Assembly (NCBI GenBank): GCA_964005815.1
Contig: CAXFSR010000036.1
Location: forward strand, 28,433-92,432
Source: an uncultured Nitrospinaceae bacterium
GTDB taxonomy: Bacteria; UBA8248
DNA: 64,000 bases
Reading direction: 5' to 3'
The notes under the pieces are model-generated. The model had not been told where the DNA came from, made no database searches, and saw only the letters and a program-made list of their open reading frames with translations. Positions 1,472 through 46,527 of this stretch are shown here, piece by piece; the first letter of the stretch is position 1; each line of letters opens with the position of its first letter. Made by a program: the position numbers and the translations under genes.

Positions 1472-1497
1472 TTAGACCTCAATTTTACATAAAAAGC

Positions 1498-1848
<351 letters not shown>

Positions 1849-3069: not shown

Positions 3070-3144
3070 TGGTGGGCCCACTTGGATTCGAACCAAGAAC
3101 CAACCGGTTATGAGCCGGACGCTCCACCATTGAGCTATGGGCCC
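3070..3144 (-). tRNA. tRNA with CAT anticodon, most likely tRNA-Ile2 (lysidine); CCA encoded
   Basis: GGGCCCA TA GCTC AATGGTG GAGC G TCCGG CT-CAT-AA CCGGT TGGTT CTTGG TTCGAAT CCAAG TGGGCCC ACCA. G1:C72 pair, so not the initiator. C4:G69 and C5:G68 are as in E. coli tRNA-Ile2. The tRNA itself is certain; the Ile2 versus Met call is inferred. Confidence 0.9.
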
Positions 3145-21137: not shown

Positions 21138-24035
21138 TCAACTTTCATCAAAGTTCTCAATTGGCAAACATGAGCAAATGAGATTTCTATCTCCATATGG
21201 ATTATTAACTCGTTTAACCGGAGGCCAATATTTATTCTCTTTCACCCACGGCAAGGGAAAAACTGCCTTCTCTCTTGTGTAAGGATAAATCCAATTTTCC
21301 GTAGAAATATCTCTGGAAGTATGAGGAGCATTTTTTAGTATATTCTCGAGTTTGTCGACTAAACCATTTTCAACTTCAGAAATTTCTTTTCGAATCTCTA
21401 TCATCGCTTCACAAAATCTATCTAGTTCTTCTTTTGATTCACTCTCGGTAGGTTCTATCATTAAAGTACCCGGAACAGGAAAAGACATTGTAGGAGCATG
21501 AAATCCAAAATCGATTAAACGTTTAGCAACATCCTCAACAGTCACTCCTGTATTTGTTTCAATTTCTCTTAAATCTATAATACATTCGTGAGCAACCATG
21601 CCTTTTAATCCCTTATAAAGGACGTCATAGTGACCTTCAAGTTTTTTCGAAATATAGTTAGCATTTAGAATGGCTATTTCAGAAGCTTTTTTAAGACCTA
21701 GACCACCCATCATTTGGATATAGGCCCAAGAAATCGGCAAAATCCCTGCACTACCCCAAGGAGCAGAAGACACGGTATATCCTCTATCTTTTAAAGAATG
21801 TCCATCTTGAGCAAAATGGCTTGGCAAAAAAGATGCAAGGTGTTCTGCAACTCCAATTGGACCCATTCCTGGACCCCCTCCACCATGAGGTATGCAGAAA
21901 GTTTTATGCAAATTCATATGCGAAACATCTGGTCCAAAATCACCAGGACGACATAAACCGACAAGTGCATTGAGATTTGCACCATCCATATATACCTGTC
22001 CACCATTTGAATGAACAACATCACATATATCTGAAATTTTTTCTTCGAAAACTCCATGAGTTGAAGGGTACGTAACCATCAAAGCCGCTAAATTAGACGA
22101 ATGTAACTGCGCTTTTGTTTTCAGATCGTTAAAATCTACATTACCATCATCATCACATTTCACTACTACAACTTCAAAACCCGCCATAACGGCACTTGCT
22201 GGATTTGTTCCGTGAGCAGAACTAGGTATTAGACATATGTTTCTATTAATTTCTCCACGTTGTTCATGATATTTTCTAATAACAAGTAAACCAGCATACT
22301 CTCCCTGAGCACCAGAGTTCGGCTGAAAAGAAATCTTTGAAAATCCAGTTATTTCACATAATTTTCTTTCAAAATCTTTCAGAAAAATGGCATATCCCTC
22401 ACACTGATCTGGTGGCACAAAAGGATGTATTCTGTTAAATCCCTCCCAAGTTATAGGAATCATTTCTGAAGTAGCATTTAATTTCATTGTACATGAACCA
22501 AGAGGAATCATGGATTTTGTAAGTGAAATATCTTTTTCCTGAAGCCGGAAAATATAACGAAGCATCTCAGTTTCTGAGTGATAGGAATTAAAAACCGGGT
22601 GAGTTAAATAAGGAGAATCTCTTAATAGTTCTTTTGGGATAAAATCATCCTCTATGTTATCGCATTCAAGTATTTCAAAATCAATCTTTCCTTTTTCACA
22701 GAAAACCCCTAATAGATCTTCCAACTCCTTGAGCTTCGTAGTTTCATCTAATGATATTCCTATCCTATCATCTGCAATAAAACGCAAGTTGAATCCTTGC
22801 TTTTCTGCTAGCTCGATGAGTAAGTTTGCTTTTTTTTCTCCAGTATTTATCTCGAGCGTATCAAAAAAACTATTATTTACTACCTGAAAATCCAACTTTT
22901 TAAGGCTATTGGAGAGGATAGCAGTAAATCGATGGATTCTTTCGGCAATTCTTCGGAGTCCTACAGGGCCATGATAAACAGCATACATACTTGCCACAAC
23001 AGCCAGAAGAACTTGAGCAGTACAAATATTACTTGTAGCCTTTTCTCTTCTAATATGTTGCTCTCTAGTTTGCAGAGAAAGTCTCAGTGCACTATCTTCA
23101 TTCGCGTCAATTGAAACTCCAACAATTCGCCCTGGAACAGATCTCTTATAGTGTTCACGAGTTGCAAAAAAAGCCGCATGAGGACCACCAAAACCCATTG
23201 GAACTCCAAATCGTTGAGAATTTCCAACTACAACATCAGCTCCAAACTCTCCAGGTGGTTTCAATAAAACCAAACTCATTAGATCAGAAGCGACTGCAAC
23301 TAGACAATCCTTATCATGTGCTTCTTTTACAAGTTCGGAAAAATCGAAAATACTACCAGTGGTATTAGGATATTGAATAAAAATACCGAAAGAATTGAAT
23401 TGACTGAAAGAATCAATACTTCCAACTTTAATTTCTATTCCTTGTGGCTCTGCTCTCGTTCTCAAAATATCAATTGTCTGAGGATGACATCCATCAGAAA
23501 CAAAAAATATTGGGCTTTCATTTTTAGATAAATTTCTAATCATGGTCATAGCCTCTGCTGCAGCGGTGCCTTCATCTAACAATGATGAATTTGCAATATC
23601 CATTCCTGTCAAATCAGAAATCAGAGTTTGGAAATTTAAAAGCGCTTCCAACCGACCCTGAGATATTTCAGGTTGATATGGCGTGTAAGCAGTATACCAG
23701 GCAGGATTTTCTAAAATATTTCTTAAAATTACAGATGGTGTGACACAGTCATGATAACCCATACCAATCATCGAACGATTGACTATATTTTTTTTTGCAA
23801 ACAAGCTTAAGTCACTAAGTACCTCTCCTTCAGGGCAACTTTCACCTATTTCAATAGGCATTTTAACAGATATATTATTGGGAACAGTATTTTCTATTAA
23901 CTCTTCAAGATCAGAGTAACCAAGGAATTCGAGCATATTCAGAATATCATTGCTGCTAGGACCTATATGCCTTCTTATAAACTCATCTCTTTGTTCTAGA
24001 AATTTTAAATCTTTAAATGAATTAGATAAATCCAA
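21138..24035 (-). CDS. gcvP: Glycine dehydrogenase (decarboxylating), single chain
   Basis: [30 protein letters not shown] (PLP lysine), EPTESE, NLICSC. Confidence 0.98.
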
Positions 24036-24067
24036 ATGTTTTACCTCTTTTAAAGCTACACCAAATT

Positions 24068-24457
24068 CTATTTTCCCTCTGCACCAACATAAGAAGCATA
24101 TTCCTCTCCAGTTAGCAAAGCATCTAATTCAGTAGAATCTGACATCTCTACCTTGATTATCCAAGCTTCGTTATAGGGATCAGAATTAATCAATTCTGGT
24201 TCTTCTTCCAATCTTGAATTAACTTCAATAACTTTACCGGAAACTGGAGCATAGAGATCTGAAACTGCTTTTACTGATTCAACAACACCAAACGTACCAC
24301 TCGCATCTACGGAAGATCCAATTTCTGGAGCTTCCACGTAAACTACATCGCCAAGTTCATCTTGCGCATGAGCTGTTATGCCTATAATTGCAATATCTCC
24401 ATCCACTTTCACCCATTCATGCTCTTTCGAATACTTTAAATCTTCAGGAAATTCCAT
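24068..24457 (-). CDS. gcvH: Glycine cleavage system H protein
   Basis: [21 protein letters not shown] lipoyl lysine, PELINSDPY. Confidence 0.97.
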
Positions 24458-42187: not shown

Positions 42188-44179
42188 TTATTCGACCAAT
42201 TCCAAATCTGCCATCTTATTTATCATTTCAGAGGGCAATTCATGAATCTCTGTAAATCCACGTCTGACACATTCCATATTATCTATGACTACCTGCTCAC
42301 CTCTTCTACCAAAATATTTTCGAATCGATTTTTCAACACTAGAAAAAATATCTTCCTCAGTTAAATTCTTTTGTTCCATAAACGGAGTACATTTCAAAAA
42401 GATTCCAAGTAAAACTATCCCTTGCATCCTTTGCTCTAACGAAGGATCACTTGCTATTTCCCTCGCTACTTTAACTGTATCCATGAAAAGAACTCTCGCA
42501 CTTTTTTGCCTCAAGATATTTCTGGAAGCTGGAGGAATATTTTCCCATACTTTTTCGGGATCTTCTTCATCAGTTTGAACAAATACCATTCCTTTATCTG
42601 AAAGACCCTTTAGTGGATTGCCAGACTTAAAAGCATTTACGTCATTGAGTGGAATGAATTCAACATCATTTAACTCACAATGTGTTCTAATTACATCATC
42701 TGCAATTGTAAGATAGTATGTAGTAGGAAGACCTTTTTTCTCAGATCCATATTTTGGGTAAGCCTGCACATTCATCCCGAAAGTATCACCAGCTATGGTC
42801 GCTATAACTTTGTTGGTAGTGACTGACCCATATCCACCAACTGAATGTCCTCTCATTGAAAAGGCACCAGCTGGGCGAAGATCTGGATCTTCCTCTACAT
42901 CTAAAGCCGTAGCATGTTTAATTCCTAGTGAAAAATATCGCTGTTGATCTTCTGTCTTCGAATCCATCATATTTTTTAGACATGCAAGGAAATCACCTGG
43001 CCTAACATCTCGGCTTCCTAAGCCAGCTGAACAAGAAAAGACTACAGGAATTCTATCTATTTCTGGATAATTTTTTACTCCGGTTAATGAATCTGCAAAA
43101 GACGATTTAATTTCAGCAGTGAGAGGATTAGATTGGGCACTGGGCACGTCAAGTCTCTCTAATACCGTAAATGCTTTTGTATTCTTTAGGGCATCAACAA
43201 TTTCATCACCTGGGAATGGCCTAAAAGACGTGACATTTACAAGACCAACCTTGTGACCCTGACTTCTTAAATAATCTACGGCGGCGATTGCAGTTTCCAT
43301 ATAGCAACCCATACCTACAAACGCATATTCAGCATCCTCTATACAATAAGATTCTGTTAATCCGTATTTTCTACCCGTCGCCTCATAAAATTCCTGCATC
43401 GCATTTTTTAGGAGTTCAGGAATTTGATCATAGAAATATCGTTGAGAAATTTTTCCTTTCATATAAGAATCCTGATTTTGCACAACACCTATCATAGTAG
43501 GATTATCAAAATCCATATTATTTCTTATTTTTTCAAGAGGAGGGCCAATAAACTCTTTCATAAATTCAGGTTCAGGCAAAGAAACGTTTTCAATAGTATG
43601 AGTGGTAAGAAAACCATCTTGAATGTTTAGAAAAGGAGTCTCAGAATCTTCTGCAACACGCCTTGAAATAAGTGCTAAATCTCCAGCTTCTTGCGCAGTT
43701 CTCGCAAACAACATACCCCACCCACAATCAGCAACACCCATAACATCATCGTGACCAGCATGTACATTTAAACTCTGCGAAGTCAATGCTCTTGCACCAA
43801 TATGAAACACAGCTGGTAGCCTTTTTCCACTTATGGTGTAAAGTACCTCTTTCATCAAGATAAGTCCTTGCCCTGAAGTAAAATTGGAAACTCTTCCGCC
43901 GGCAACAGCAAAGCCTTCACATGTGCTTGCGCTGGAGTGTTCGCTTTCGAGTTCTAGAAAGAAAAGTTTTTCTCCCCAAAGGTTCTCCTTACCATTAGAA
44001 ACTTCAGCCTGATAACCCTGACCCATTGTTGTTGAACTGGTAATAGGATATGCACAAGCTCCCTGTGTTATATGCGTTTCAACCCAAGCTACTGCGGCAG
44101 CACCGTCTGCAGTAGTAGGAAGACCCGGATACTTAAAAACTCCAGATCCATTTTCGCTATTTCCGTTTGTATGATTCAT
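42188..44179 (-). CDS. 2-oxoacid:ferredoxin oxidoreductase, alpha plus gamma domains (NifJ N-terminal half; probably pyruvate-type)
   Basis: AYPITSS, ESEHS, HIGARAL, GHSVGGYGS, YGSEKKG.PT. Confidence 0.9.
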   Translation of the reverse strand: MNHTNGNSENGSGVFKYPGLPTTADGAAAVAWVETHITQGACAYPITSSTTMGQGYQAEVSNGKENLWGEKLFFLELESEHSSASTCEGFAVAGGRVSNFTSGQGLILMKEVLYTISGKRLPAVFHIGARALTSQSLNVHAGHDDVMGVADCGWGMLFARTAQEAGDLALISRRVAEDSETPFLNIQDGFLTTHTIENVSLPEPEFMKEFIGPPLEKIRNNMDFDNPTMIGVVQNQDSYMKGKISQRYFYDQIPELLKNAMQEFYEATGRKYGLTESYCIEDAEYAFVGMGCYMETAIAAVDYLRSQGHKVGLVNVTSFRPFPGDEIVDALKNTKAFTVLERLDVPSAQSNPLTAEIKSSFADSLTGVKNYPEIDRIPVVFSCSAGLGSRDVRPGDFLACLKNMMDSKTEDQQRYFSLGIKHATALDVEEDPDLRPAGAFSMRGHSVGGYGSVTTNKVIATIAGDTFGMNVQAYPKYGSEKKGLPTTYYLTIADDVIRTHCELNDVEFIPLNDVNAFKSGNPLKGLSDKGMVFVQTDEEDPEKVWENIPPASRNILRQKSARVLFMDTVKVAREIASDPSLEQRMQGIVLLGIFLKCTPFMEQKNLTEEDIFSSVEKSIRKYFGRRGEQVVIDNMECVRRGFTEIHELPSEMINKMADLELVE

Positions 44180-44462
44180 TCTAATTTCACCTATTTCGTA
44201 TAAAGATTAGTAAGATTCAACAGGATTTTTAATGAACTAATTACCCAATTATAAAGGAAAGTACCCTTAAGTTCAATGAAAATAGATACAAAAAAATACA
44301 AATTATTTAAATCTTTTAAAAACAATAGGTTACAGAATACAATCGAGAGTTTGTCAAGATTTGCTCTTCTTAATAAAAATGATTTAACATTACTTTGACA
44401 ATACAGTCCCAAAAAAGGTTATTATAGAATATAAACTCATTCATAAAGGAGAGTGTACCTAA

Positions 44463-45215
44463 ATGGAACCAGTTAAAATCTACACGAGGCACGGTTGATT
44501 TTCATGTGCAAGAATGAAAGAGTTTCTTTCAGAAAATGGCATCCCAATAGAAAATCGAGATTGCACAAATGATCCTGTTGCTCAAAAAGAATTAAATGAA
44601 CTTGGAATCAAAGCTTTACCTGTAGCAGTAAGAGGATCAAAAATTGTAATTGGTTTTGATGAAAAAAAACTAATCGAAACTTTCGAGATAGAAAAAAAAT
44701 TACGAGAACCTTTAAATGTTCATTCTATAATGCGCTTTACCTCAAAAGTGTTTTTGGCAACAAAACGTGCGATAAATCAAATCCCAAAAGAAAAACTCGA
44801 CTGGATTTCACCTGACCGTCCCAGATCTCTCAGACAACTAACGTGGCATATATTTGAGAGATTCGAACTTTGCATGGAAGCATATACTTCTGAACACTAC
44901 ACAGAAGATATGGTTAGAAGATATGAAAAGGAAGCAAATAATTATAAAGCTAACGAAGACATTTGTTTATATGGTGACAAAGTTGAAGATAAATTAAAAA
45001 AATTCATCAATGAAAATGAACAAAATATAGATAAAGAAATAGATAGCTATATGGGAAAAATAACTATTCAAAAACTTTTAGAAATGGCTTTAGGACATGG
45101 AGTTCAGCATCTACGACATACATATCATTACTTTGAAATGTTAAATATAGTCCCGGATTCCCCTTTAAAGCCAGATGATTACAAGGAAATTCCCGTACCA
45201 AAGGAATTGTTCTAA
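44463..45215 (+). CDS. Probable selenoprotein: glutaredoxin/NrdH-like U-x-x-C domain fused to a DinB-like domain (250 aa; in-frame TGA at 44496-44498)
   Basis: ATG at 44463 is preceded by AAGGAGAG and is in frame with the ORF at 44514. It reads MEPVKIYTRHG*FSCARMKEFL, with the TGA at the first Cys position of CxxC. ALPV (cis-Pro) and IGFD motifs follow, then DinB-like LTWH and GHGVQH. Confidence 0.85.
44499..44536 (+). promoter_or_regulatory. Candidate bacterial SECIS element
   Basis: Stem TGAAAGA (44515-21), loop GTT, stem TCTTTCA (44525-31). The loop G lies 23 nt after the TGA. Possible lower pairing TTTTC/GAAAA. Confidence 0.55.
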
Positions 45216-45258: not shown

Positions 45259-46527
45259 TTGAAAAAAAATGCGTTAAGAGCAAACCGAAAACGAATGAAG
45301 GAAGAATTTGAACACCAGTCAAAAATCGGACAGTTAGGCAAAACAGGTCTTTCAAGAGTCGCATTTACAGTTCCATTTACTAAAGTAAGAAAATATGCAC
45401 AATCTCTTATGAAGAATGCAGGAATGAAAACTAAAATTGACGCATTTGGGAATTTGTACGGCAGAAAGGAAGGAAAACAAAAAAATCTACCTACCGTTAT
45501 GCTTGGTTCGCACCTTGACAGCCAAAATCCAGGAGGAAGGTTTGACGGTCCAGCTGGAGTACTTACAGCTCTTGAGGCTATTCGTATTTTAAAAGAAAAT
45601 AAAATTGACCATGAACATCCTATTGAGGTAGTAGCTTTTGCCGGCGAAGAATCCTCATGTGGAATGACCGTTTTTGGAAGCAGTGCAGCAACTGGAGTAA
45701 TAGGTGCAAAGGAAATGAAAAATACTATACATCCTCCAACTGGAAAAAGTCTTTATGAAATTGTGAATAAGACAGGAGGCAATACATCAAAAATCAGAAC
45801 CTCTATTTTACAAAAAAAATCTATAAAATCTTTTCTAGAACTTCATATAGAGCAAGGACCTATTCTGGAAACAAATAAGGTTTCTATTGGAGTAGTTGAT
45901 CTCGTTGTAGGCTACATAAGAGGGCAAATTATTTTCAAAGGAGTTTCTGCTCATTCAGGAGGGCAACCAATGCCTTACCGCAGAGACTCTTCTATGGCCG
46001 CAGCAGAGTTTATGCTTGAAATGGAATCCATGGTAAAAAATGCGCCTGAGAGTCAAAGACTGACTATTACATTCGGCGAAATTAACGCAAGGCCAGGATG
46101 GATATCAATTGTTCCTGGAGAAACAGAAATTTCATTTGACCTTAGAGGGAAAAATGATGAGATTCTCAAAAGAATTCTAGAAAGAATGAAGAAGAAACTA
46201 CTCGAAATAAAACAAAAAAGAAAAGTTCATGGTATTATGAAAGATGTATTAAAACTTCCAGTCTGTCCAACTTCAAAAAAAATTCAGTCTATTCTCAAAA
46301 GAGCTTCTAAAACCGCAGGATTCAGATCTCTTAAACTCTCAAGTGGTGGAGTGCATGATGCTTGCAGGATGGCAAAATTATGCCCTATAGGGATGATTTT
46401 TATCCCTTCAGTCAAAGGATTATCACATACACCCGAAGAGTTTACTCACTTTGAAGATATGGTTAAAGGAGCAGAAGTGACAGCACTCGCGCTATCCGAA
46501 CTCTCTAAGAAAAGTGTGAAAATTTAA
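45259..46527 (+). CDS. Zn-dependent amidohydrolase, N-carbamoyl-L-amino acid hydrolase/allantoate amidohydrolase family (M20)
   Basis: DAFGNL, GSHLDS, FDG..GV, ELHIEQGP, DLRG, HDA, SHTPEE. Confidence 0.9.
   Translation: MKKNALRANRKRMKEEFEHQSKIGQLGKTGLSRVAFTVPFTKVRKYAQSLMKNAGMKTKIDAFGNLYGRKEGKQKNLPTVMLGSHLDSQNPGGRFDGPAGVLTALEAIRILKENKIDHEHPIEVVAFAGEESSCGMTVFGSSAATGVIGAKEMKNTIHPPTGKSLYEIVNKTGGNTSKIRTSILQKKSIKSFLELHIEQGPILETNKVSIGVVDLVVGYIRGQIIFKGVSAHSGGQPMPYRRDSSMAAAEFMLEMESMVKNAPESQRLTITFGEINARPGWISIVPGETEISFDLRGKNDEILKRILERMKKKLLEIKQKRKVHGIMKDVLKLPVCPTSKKIQSILKRASKTAGFRSLKLSSGGVHDACRMAKLCPIGMIFIPSVKGLSHTPEEFTHFEDMVKGAEVTALALSELSKKSVKI

Follow-up and report, generated by a model that had tools for sequence, protein, structure and literature searches.

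Selenoproteins of the thioredoxin (Trx) fold that carry a UxxC motif, in which U denotes selenocysteine (Sec), are a well-known kind, and the Nitrospinota are already known to be rich in selenoproteins. NrdH-type redoxins, which adopt the same fold, depend for their reduction on thioredoxin reductase, not on glutathione (GSH). The DinB fold is represented by BstA, a Zn enzyme with conserved His ligands, and by MST, which employs two His and an Asp; these are metal-dependent low-molecular-weight (LMW) thiol S-transferases, and it is the metal to which their thiol substrate binds (PMC10950700). The present analysis concerns a gene in which a glutaredoxin (Grx) domain and a DinB domain are joined. 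It lies within a stretch of 64,000 nucleotides (nt; hereafter, the window) from an uncultured Nitrospinaceae bacterium (assembly GCA_964005815.1, contig CAXFSR010000036.1, positions 28,433 to 92,432), and a preliminary description of this DNA had taken it for a hidden selenoprotein gene. The same view is reached here: the gene very probably encodes a genuine selenoprotein, with UGA 44496 decoded as Sec by way of SelB and tRNA-Sec under the direction of a hairpin, and this reading, taken as a whole with the way in which the protein is proposed to work, is given a probability of roughly 0.85 as the best explanation of the locus.

Reading frame and conservation of the TGA codon

In full, the Sec-containing Grx-DinB protein is encoded at positions 44463..45215 of the forward strand, by 250 codons followed by TAA (45213-45215). 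A Shine-Dalgarno-like sequence, AAGGAGAG, is found at 44447..44454 upstream of the ATG at 44463, and the 11 codons that begin there (MEPVKIYTRHG) lead into an in-frame TGA at codon 12 (44496..44498), the proposed Sec codon of a U-F-S-C redox motif, after which the frame continues as F-S-C-A-R. The resolving residue of the UxxC motif, Cys15 (TGT, 44505..44507), is invariant in the superfamily alignment. Mechanical calling of open reading frames (ORFs) gave a product of 233 residues from ATG 44514, directly 3' of the U-x-x-C motif; no Shine-Dalgarno-like motif was found upstream of this called start, and the extended ATG has a GGAG-type motif ahead of it in essentially every orthologous locus. 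Thus the ribosome-binding site (RBS), the start and the MEPVKIYTRHG-TGA-FSC frame are all placed as the preliminary description had them, and its statement that the called ORF deletes the redox centre was borne out. Between the window and locus L007, another member of the low-GC clade, codons 1-11 differ at five positions, all of them synonymous, indicating that this stretch is translated in the lineage of the window and is under purifying selection.

When one genome per species (GTDB) was scanned for orthologues, 35 loci were recovered, which belong to the Nitrospinota/Nitrospinaceae, one Tectomicrobia metagenome-assembled genome (MAG) and other MAGs and range from 36 to 71% GC; with L001 and L002 counted in, 36 full-length orthologues from 35 species were available. 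Codon 12 is TGA in all 36 and Cys in none, and the proteins that share it are 52-93% identical. The peptide upstream of it is conserved across the orthologues as MExVKVYTRHG, together with its RBS, and the same peptide stands ahead of the TGA in two truncated GenBank entries when their DNA is read. Position 18 is occupied by Thr and never by Met in the GC-rich orthologues, such that no start is available directly past the TGA and gene callers begin 26-55 residues into the Grx fold. A third cysteine, at codon 34 (TGC, 44562-44564) within the motif N-R-D-C-[TS]-N-D, is present in 36/36 Nitrospinota-type Sec-form orthologues and missing from both the Cys-form family and the Chloroflexota Sec form; it could serve as a clade-specific additional redox residue or metal ligand.

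More remote relatives were sought with HMMER among 1.84 billion representatives, of which 437 were recovered at E<=1e-3. Distant full-length members, with 22-32% identity and the same two-domain architecture, were found to have CxxC at the TGA column (e.g., WQPGCSSCLRTKEFL), as did every distant full-length homologue that was aligned (27/27). In a 30-sequence alignment, nine columns are invariant, viz. C12 (the Sec column), C15, G48, P53, H129, G198, Q215, H216, and R218, while R119, R121, E207, and H212 are retained in more than 90% of the sequences; this pattern of residue conservation was confirmed on 72-73 sequences. The N-terminus is missing from many of the closest representatives, and the four truncated calls from other lineages that were checked (L047 of the Chloroflexota, L048, L049, and L050) all hide an in-frame TGA at the Sec column, which implies that the Sec form recurs across subfamilies and phyla. 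The preliminary description had placed the TGA at the nucleophilic Cys of a Grx/NrdH-like fold and had anticipated that homologues would present either Cys or TGA at this column; both expectations agree with these data, and the window protein can with high confidence be regarded as the Sec-containing version of a large family that otherwise carries CxxC.

A SECIS-like hairpin and the decoding of UGA

Bacterial selenocysteine insertion sequence (SECIS) elements, as captured by the bSECISearch consensus, Escherichia coli fdhF and the structures of Moorella SelB-SECIS complexes, present an apical loop that contains G(U) and lies approximately 16-37 nt past the UGA. A hairpin of this type is found at 44515..44531 of the forward strand, where the stem halves UGAAAGA (44515-21) and UCUUUCA (44525-31) enclose a GUU loop (44522-24) that starts 23 nt past the UGA. 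Among 22 distinct sequences, 93.8% of the cells are paired in the proposed register compared to 35-72% for slid registers, compensatory changes occur at two pairs (A-U/G-C and U-A/C-G), and a core of 6 bp was recovered by RNAalifold. Codon usage within the element is likewise constrained. Arg19 is AGA or AGG in all 31 GC-rich orthologues, compared to an AGR share of 15% among the Arg codons elsewhere in those genes, and Phe21 is TTT in 29 of the 31, compared to 24% elsewhere; synonymous entropy over codons 18-23 ranges from 0 to 0.64 against a gene mean of 0.87. In three Cys-form genes that encode the identical T-K-E-F-L peptide, the codons are ACC-AAG-GAG-TTC-CTC and no hairpin is present. 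The TGA forms, by contrast, maintain a continuous helix of 6-9 bp at the same register, with the exception of L050, for which a weaker and different stem-loop was observed. L050 (121-175) is a distant Sec form with the sequence FWQPA-TGA-TSC, and a weak GGAAUUCC-type stem takes the place of the GUU-loop hairpin; this member may use a different SECIS solution inside the same protein family.

TGA is an ordinary stop codon in the window: gcvP ends with it, Trp is encoded by TGG in all genes checked, none of six neighbouring genes checked is interrupted by an in-frame TGA, and 87% of the sequence is covered by ORFs that reach 150 codons or more under genetic code 11. The exclusion of genome-wide recoding in the preliminary description is thereby upheld. 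The bacterial class A RNase P RNA (1495-1847, reverse strand, 333.8 bits), tRNA-Met(CAT) (3070-3144, reverse strand) and gcvH-gcvP of the glycine cleavage system (21138-24457, reverse strand) are housekeeping features that confirm a standard-code bacterial chromosome. Two other in-frame TGAs, set in a redox-like context, were considered as selenoprotein candidates and rejected; the one near 24131 is the gcvH/gcvP junction and the one near 2295 (C-x-x-TGA) the overlap of a zinc-ribbon gene with an RNase H gene. With respect to the Sec pathway, BSepDB is restricted to species that possess it, and FO_M_Nitrospinota_01 is listed there with 54 selenoprotein genes (PMC13326102). One of the TGA-containing orthologues (locus L015) derives from this very MAG.

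Four observations weigh against a hairpin-directed insertion of Sec. The covariation within the hairpin amounts to two pairs and few independent events; Rfam scans at gathering and permissive thresholds returned no SECIS family and only chance matches to snoRNA and miRNA models; and the folding energy of the AT-rich hairpin of the window is no better than that of shuffled sequences (z 0.01), while the GC-rich copies reach z values of -1.75 to -2.17. Given that the single-sequence folding of the window hairpin is not significant, the case for it rests on the comparative evidence. Finally, selA, selB, selD, and tRNA-Sec were absent from the window and approximately 0.5 Mb of fetched flanks, as searched with ARAGORN for tRNA-Sec (window and 41 loci) and by tblastn with E. 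coli SelA, SelB, and SelD (window and all loci), an absence expected by chance and uninformative as to the rest of the genome.

Explanations that dispense with Sec would have to account for the same conservation. Were the TGA a true stop, the product would be the 233-residue DinB protein from ATG 44514 with a truncated remnant of a Grx, and the 11 upstream codons would form a leader or a short upstream ORF. Gene callers and GenBank do report this truncated form (P0003, P0006, P0013, and P0187), and ATG 44514 is present in the low-GC clade, but with Thr18 in the GC-rich orthologues the starts chosen by the callers would destroy the fold, purifying selection acts on codons 1-11, the RBS stands ahead of ATG 44463 and not of 44514, and the distant homologues are full length with CxxC. 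A Grx fold without strand 1 and the active site, moreover, would not keep an invariant C15 and cis-Pro. Termination at this codon is considered very improbable. That the gene is a pseudogene with a recent TGY-to-TGA nonsense mutation, or that the codon reflects an error of sequencing or assembly, might be suspected from the single base that separates TGA from TGT and TGC and from the probable origin of the window in a MAG; this explanation is effectively refuted by the identical TGA, with TGY in no instance, in 36/36 independent assemblies, and by a gene that is otherwise intact, highly conserved and furnished with a dedicated, maintained hairpin. Readthrough of the UGA as Trp or Cys, by near-cognate or suppressor decoding without SelB, would fit both the lack of Sec machinery in the window and fetched loci and the W printed in ENA gene calls, although the latter is an artefact of calling under genetic code 4. 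Such decoding is nevertheless most unlikely, given that genes of the window use TGA for normal termination and TGG for Trp, that the alignment places this residue at the nucleophilic Cys of CxxC, a classic site of Sec/Cys exchange, that a GU-loop hairpin specific to the TGA forms lies at the canonical SelB distance, and that the MAG of a relative belongs to a documented Sec user. Decoding of the UGA as Sec accordingly remains the preferred reading.

Domain architecture, genomic context and proposed catalysis

With U read as C, the window protein was found to match Pfam PF00462 (Glutaredoxin) over residues 4-56 with 38.8 bits against a cutoff of 22.9 (E=1.1e-9), and all 30 of the family members examined match this model. 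The Glutaredoxin/NrdH-like Trx-fold domain extends over residues 1-78 (44463..44696, forward strand) and contains the cis-Pro P53 (CCT, 44619-44621). The ALPV sequence around this residue and the downstream IGFD, both of which the preliminary description had picked out as elements of the fold, have aligned counterparts in the solved Grx 7c10 (AVPV and VVGFD), a structure also matched in a sequence search of the PDB (E=1.5e-11; 3dka, E=0.17). The second domain, a DinB_2 four-helix bundle, comprises residues 86-226 (44718..45140, forward strand) and bears the His triad H129 (44847-49), H212 (45096-98), and H216 (45108-10). Pfam PF12867 (DinB_2) is matched by 24 of the 30 family members (best E=4.5e-10), and the conservation of the triad sustains the DinB-type domain proposed earlier.

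An AlphaFold2 model was obtained for P0001, which is 88% identical to the window protein and carries W at the Sec column, from an alignment of 72 sequences (mean predicted local distance difference test score, pLDDT, of 93.7; predicted template modelling score, pTM, of 0.89). The model consists of a beta-alpha-beta-alpha-beta-beta-alpha Trx fold (residues 1-74), a linker, a four-helix bundle (residues 86-226) and a C-terminal tail. In Foldseek searches of the PDB, the N-terminal domain resembled the dithiol Grx/Trx-like proteins 3zit and 7c10 (target TM-score 0.86-0.88; root-mean-square deviation [rmsd] 1.3-2.1 Å) and the C-terminal domain resembled DR0053 (6iz2; target TM-score 0.84), with YfiT (1rxq) at 0.65-0.72 and 2p1a, 3di5, and 3dka at approximately 0.76; no solved structure among these PDB matches contains both domains. 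The product is very probably a two-domain enzyme in which a NrdH/YruB-like Grx domain, with U12-x-x-C15 at the start of helix 1, is followed by a DinB/YfiT-type bundle with a His3 metal site.

By analogy with BstA and MST, the metal site would bind and polarize a thiol or an electrophilic or oxidized small-molecule substrate. The selenolate of U12 would then attack the metal-bound substrate, and C15 would resolve the resulting adduct to leave an intramolecular Se-S bond, which would be re-reduced by an external reductase, probably thioredoxin reductase or thioredoxin. The Trx system is favoured at this last step since the redoxin belongs to the NrdH/YruB type, as opposed to the classical Grx that binds GSH. 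Such a protein might thus function as a self-contained metal-dependent thiol-transferase/reductase whose fused UxxC domain supplies the nucleophile, a proposal that is advanced tentatively. The coupling of thiol conjugation to reductive turnover in one chain, as suggested in the preliminary description, is equally tentative. Two results speak against it, namely the marginal match of the window protein to DinB_2 (residues 101-218, 25.3 bits against a cutoff of 24.8) and a gene context that is not conserved beyond the Nitrospinota-type clade, with different neighbours in different lineages.

Immediately downstream of the Grx-DinB gene, at a distance of 43 nt, is a gene for a hydantoinase/carbamoylase-family (M20) amidohydrolase (45259..46527, forward strand), its probable operon partner. 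A homologous amidase gene of approximately 425 codons occupies the same place on the same strand in 24 of the 36 orthologous loci, the window included. The amidase scores 349 bits against NCBIfam TIGR01879 (cutoff 204) and falls under the cutoff of every specific NCBIfam equivalog, ErtE included; NF006771 (allantoate amidohydrolase) was just missed with 396.2 against 399. Its closest match in the PDB is the N-carbamoyl-L-amino-acid hydrolase 3n5f (E=1e-65). In many GC-rich loci the amidase is followed, on inspection of the sequence, by ORFs resembling a Liv-type ABC transporter (substrate-binding protein, permease and ATPase), and these genes together may form an operon for the uptake and hydrolysis of an N-carbamoyl or ureide compound. 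The Grx-DinB gene is probably co-transcribed with the N-carbamoyl/ureide amidohydrolase in the Nitrospinota-type clade, and its substrate may consequently belong to that pathway. At L001 (12561-13394), an ORF of 41 residues similar to the C-terminal domain of branched-chain ABC ATPases was observed in frame with, and one codon from, a complete ABC ATPase gene of 234 residues; this may be what is left of the transporter found behind the amidase in the GC-rich relatives, and it is absent from the window. A scan for promoters and terminators gave nothing above chance. The sequence TTGACA-19 nt-TATTAT at 44395-44425 was spotted by eye, the sigma-70 scan having passed over it for the length of its spacer, and is left unclaimed. 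The non-coding DNA upstream of the gene is conserved in the low-GC clade (L007-L009), with 8-15 mismatches per 60 nt.

On the upstream side, a pyruvate:ferredoxin oxidoreductase (PFOR) subunit gene (42188-44179, reverse strand) is divergent from the Grx-DinB gene in the low-GC clade (window; L002-L006). In GC-rich relatives, the interval between the two is occupied by genes for a 519-residue protein without a Pfam match, a Pyr_redox_2 flavoprotein and E1/E2-like ORFs, which give the appearance, in many loci and from sequence inspection, of an upstream 2-oxoacid dehydrogenase E1/E2/E3 cluster. The upstream pyridine-nucleotide disulfide oxidoreductase was entertained as a dedicated reductase and dismissed, its recurrent E1/E2-like neighbours making it likelier to be the E3 of that cluster. 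A link to ergothioneine catabolism through the ErtE-like neighbour was similarly set aside, being below the model cutoff and without support in the literature, and is retained only as a weak lead.

Among readings that accept the Sec residue, the main rival to a self-contained transferase/reductase is that the protein performs a specific redox, desulfurization or isomerization step on a ureide, hydantoin or N-carbamoyl compound that enters through the adjacent Liv-type ABC transporter and serves as substrate for hydrolysis by the carbamoylase-family amidase next to it, or else that UxxC and His3 constitute a site for metal handling or sensing. The amidase lies directly downstream in 24/36 loci with the ABC-transporter genes next in many GC-rich ones, and the invariant or nearly invariant Arg119, Arg121, Arg218, and Gln215 suggest an anionic small-molecule substrate. 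The DinB fold also includes isomerases and enzymes that form C-S bonds (MDMPI, EgtB). On the other hand, the pairing with the amidase is limited to one clade and could be inherited synteny, the Cys-form and other Sec-form members have unrelated neighbours, and the amidase reaches the cutoff of no specific equivalog; a dedicated step of this kind is therefore regarded as doubtful. A bolder version, in which the protein would be the first selenoenzyme to employ a metal centre of the DinB fold and would catalyse a new reaction such as reductive C-S/C-Se cleavage or thio-ureide/hydantoin desulfurization, is thought unlikely. In this version the neighbouring ABC transporter would import a thio-ureide or hydantoin-type compound and the neighbouring carbamoylase would complete its conversion, and, if true, the Sec/Cys-metal pair would represent a new kind of catalytic unit and not a generic thiol S-transferase. 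The metal-dependent thiol-transferase/reductase with its own fused nucleophile is retained as the working proposal.

Distribution, annotation and relation to known systems

The Grx-DinB architecture is not rare. Profile searches recovered at least 684 clusters of the Cys form at 90% identity, from Burkholiales-type Betaproteobacteria, Burkholderiales, Myxococcota and others, which are named automatically as "glutaredoxin" or "DinB family protein". The family is uncharacterized nonetheless, in accordance with the preliminary description, which knew of no characterized enzyme of this architecture. The TGA forms seen in GenBank, JGI and ENA are either truncated ("DinB family protein" or "hypothetical protein") or translated with Trp. 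The first homologue search returned three full-length proteins with W at the TGA column, which are code-4 calls on short contigs, the rest being N-terminally truncated. The Sec TGA is printed as Trp in P0001, P0002, P0009, P0098, and P0109 (ENA/SRC gene calls), evidently through a fallback to genetic code 4; P0009 is in addition frameshifted at its C-terminus. Searching public gene calls for W at CxxC positions could be a way to uncover hidden selenoproteins.

No NCBIfam model was reached at its cutoff by the window protein, the best being partial Grx-domain matches to YruB, Uxx-star and NrdH. A full-text search of the literature for DinB together with selenoprotein or glutaredoxin yielded nothing relevant, the 111 families of BSepDB lying outside that search, and the family may already be catalogued there under a generic "Grx-like" label. 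The fusion to DinB and the Grx-DinB family appear to be undescribed. For annotation, the consequence is that a redox centre is missing from the public protein databases for at least 35 species of several phyla. For enzymology, Sec identifies residue 12 as the nucleophile in catalysis by an uncharacterized CxxC-Grx/DinB family of large size (at least 684 clusters) that occurs in Burkholderiales, Myxococcota, Chloroflexota, Nitrospinota and others, and so offers a concrete starting point. For selenium biology, the DinB/YfiT "S-transferase-like" metalloenzyme fold is tied to selenium biochemistry, the first such link found in the literature searched. The Nitrospinota are major marine nitrite oxidizers, and their redox enzymes and selenium demand are hence of ecological interest.

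The N-terminal domain shares with NrdH/YruB-type Grx-like proteins and Grx-like selenoproteins (7c10, dithiol cGrx1; 3zit, BC3987) a short Trx fold of approximately 75 residues, in which helix 1 opens with the redox motif, a cis-Pro is present and strand 4 is of the VxGFD type, and with the Grx-like selenoproteins also Sec in place of the redox Cys. It does not attain the NCBIfam cutoffs of YruB (TIGR02196, 50.6 vs 88.55), NrdH (TIGR02194, 39.9 vs 85.75) or Uxx-star (NF041212, 43.2 vs 66), and by this sequence measure it is similar to these families without belonging to any of them. Uxx-star proteins, to go by the family name, have Sec three residues from the C-terminus, unlike the window protein, where Sec is the N-terminal residue of UxxC; nor do the NrdH/YruB-type proteins possess the 170-residue DinB domain that is fused here.

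With the DinB/YfiT superfamily (BstA/YfiT, MST, DR0053), the window family shares the four-helix bundle and the metal triad composed of a His from helix 2 and the HxxxH of helix 4, at a sequence identity of only 13-18%. The known S-transferases of this superfamily are homodimers that stand alone and draw on a diffusible LMW thiol (PMC10950700), whereas the window family has a covalently fused redoxin, invariant residues of its own (R119, R121, Q215, and R218) and a conserved C-terminal PxP tail. With the LMW-thiol S-transferases BstA and MST it has in common only the fold and the metal ligands.

The overall layout, a Trx-fold domain with its catalytic residue at the N-terminus of helix 1 followed by an all-helical substrate domain, is also that of canonical cytosolic glutathione S-transferases (GSTs). 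Membership among these was rejected, GST_N_3 giving E=0.18 and 12.6 bits against a cutoff of 22 and GST_C remaining unmatched, and full-length Foldseek matches to GST, GDAP1, and SspA gave TM-scores of 0.3-0.4 with rmsd values above 10 Å. The helical domain here is a DinB bundle with a metal site and not GST_C, so that the likeness to GSTs is one of analogy and not of homology. A functional analogy is likewise offered by the Prx-Grx hybrid HI0572 (PDB 1nm3). Its partner domain is a peroxiredoxin and not DinB, the order of its domains is reversed and the sequence match is negligible (E=0.61), but in it, too, a Grx is fused to the enzyme that it is thought to recycle, with the reducing equivalents passing within a single chain.

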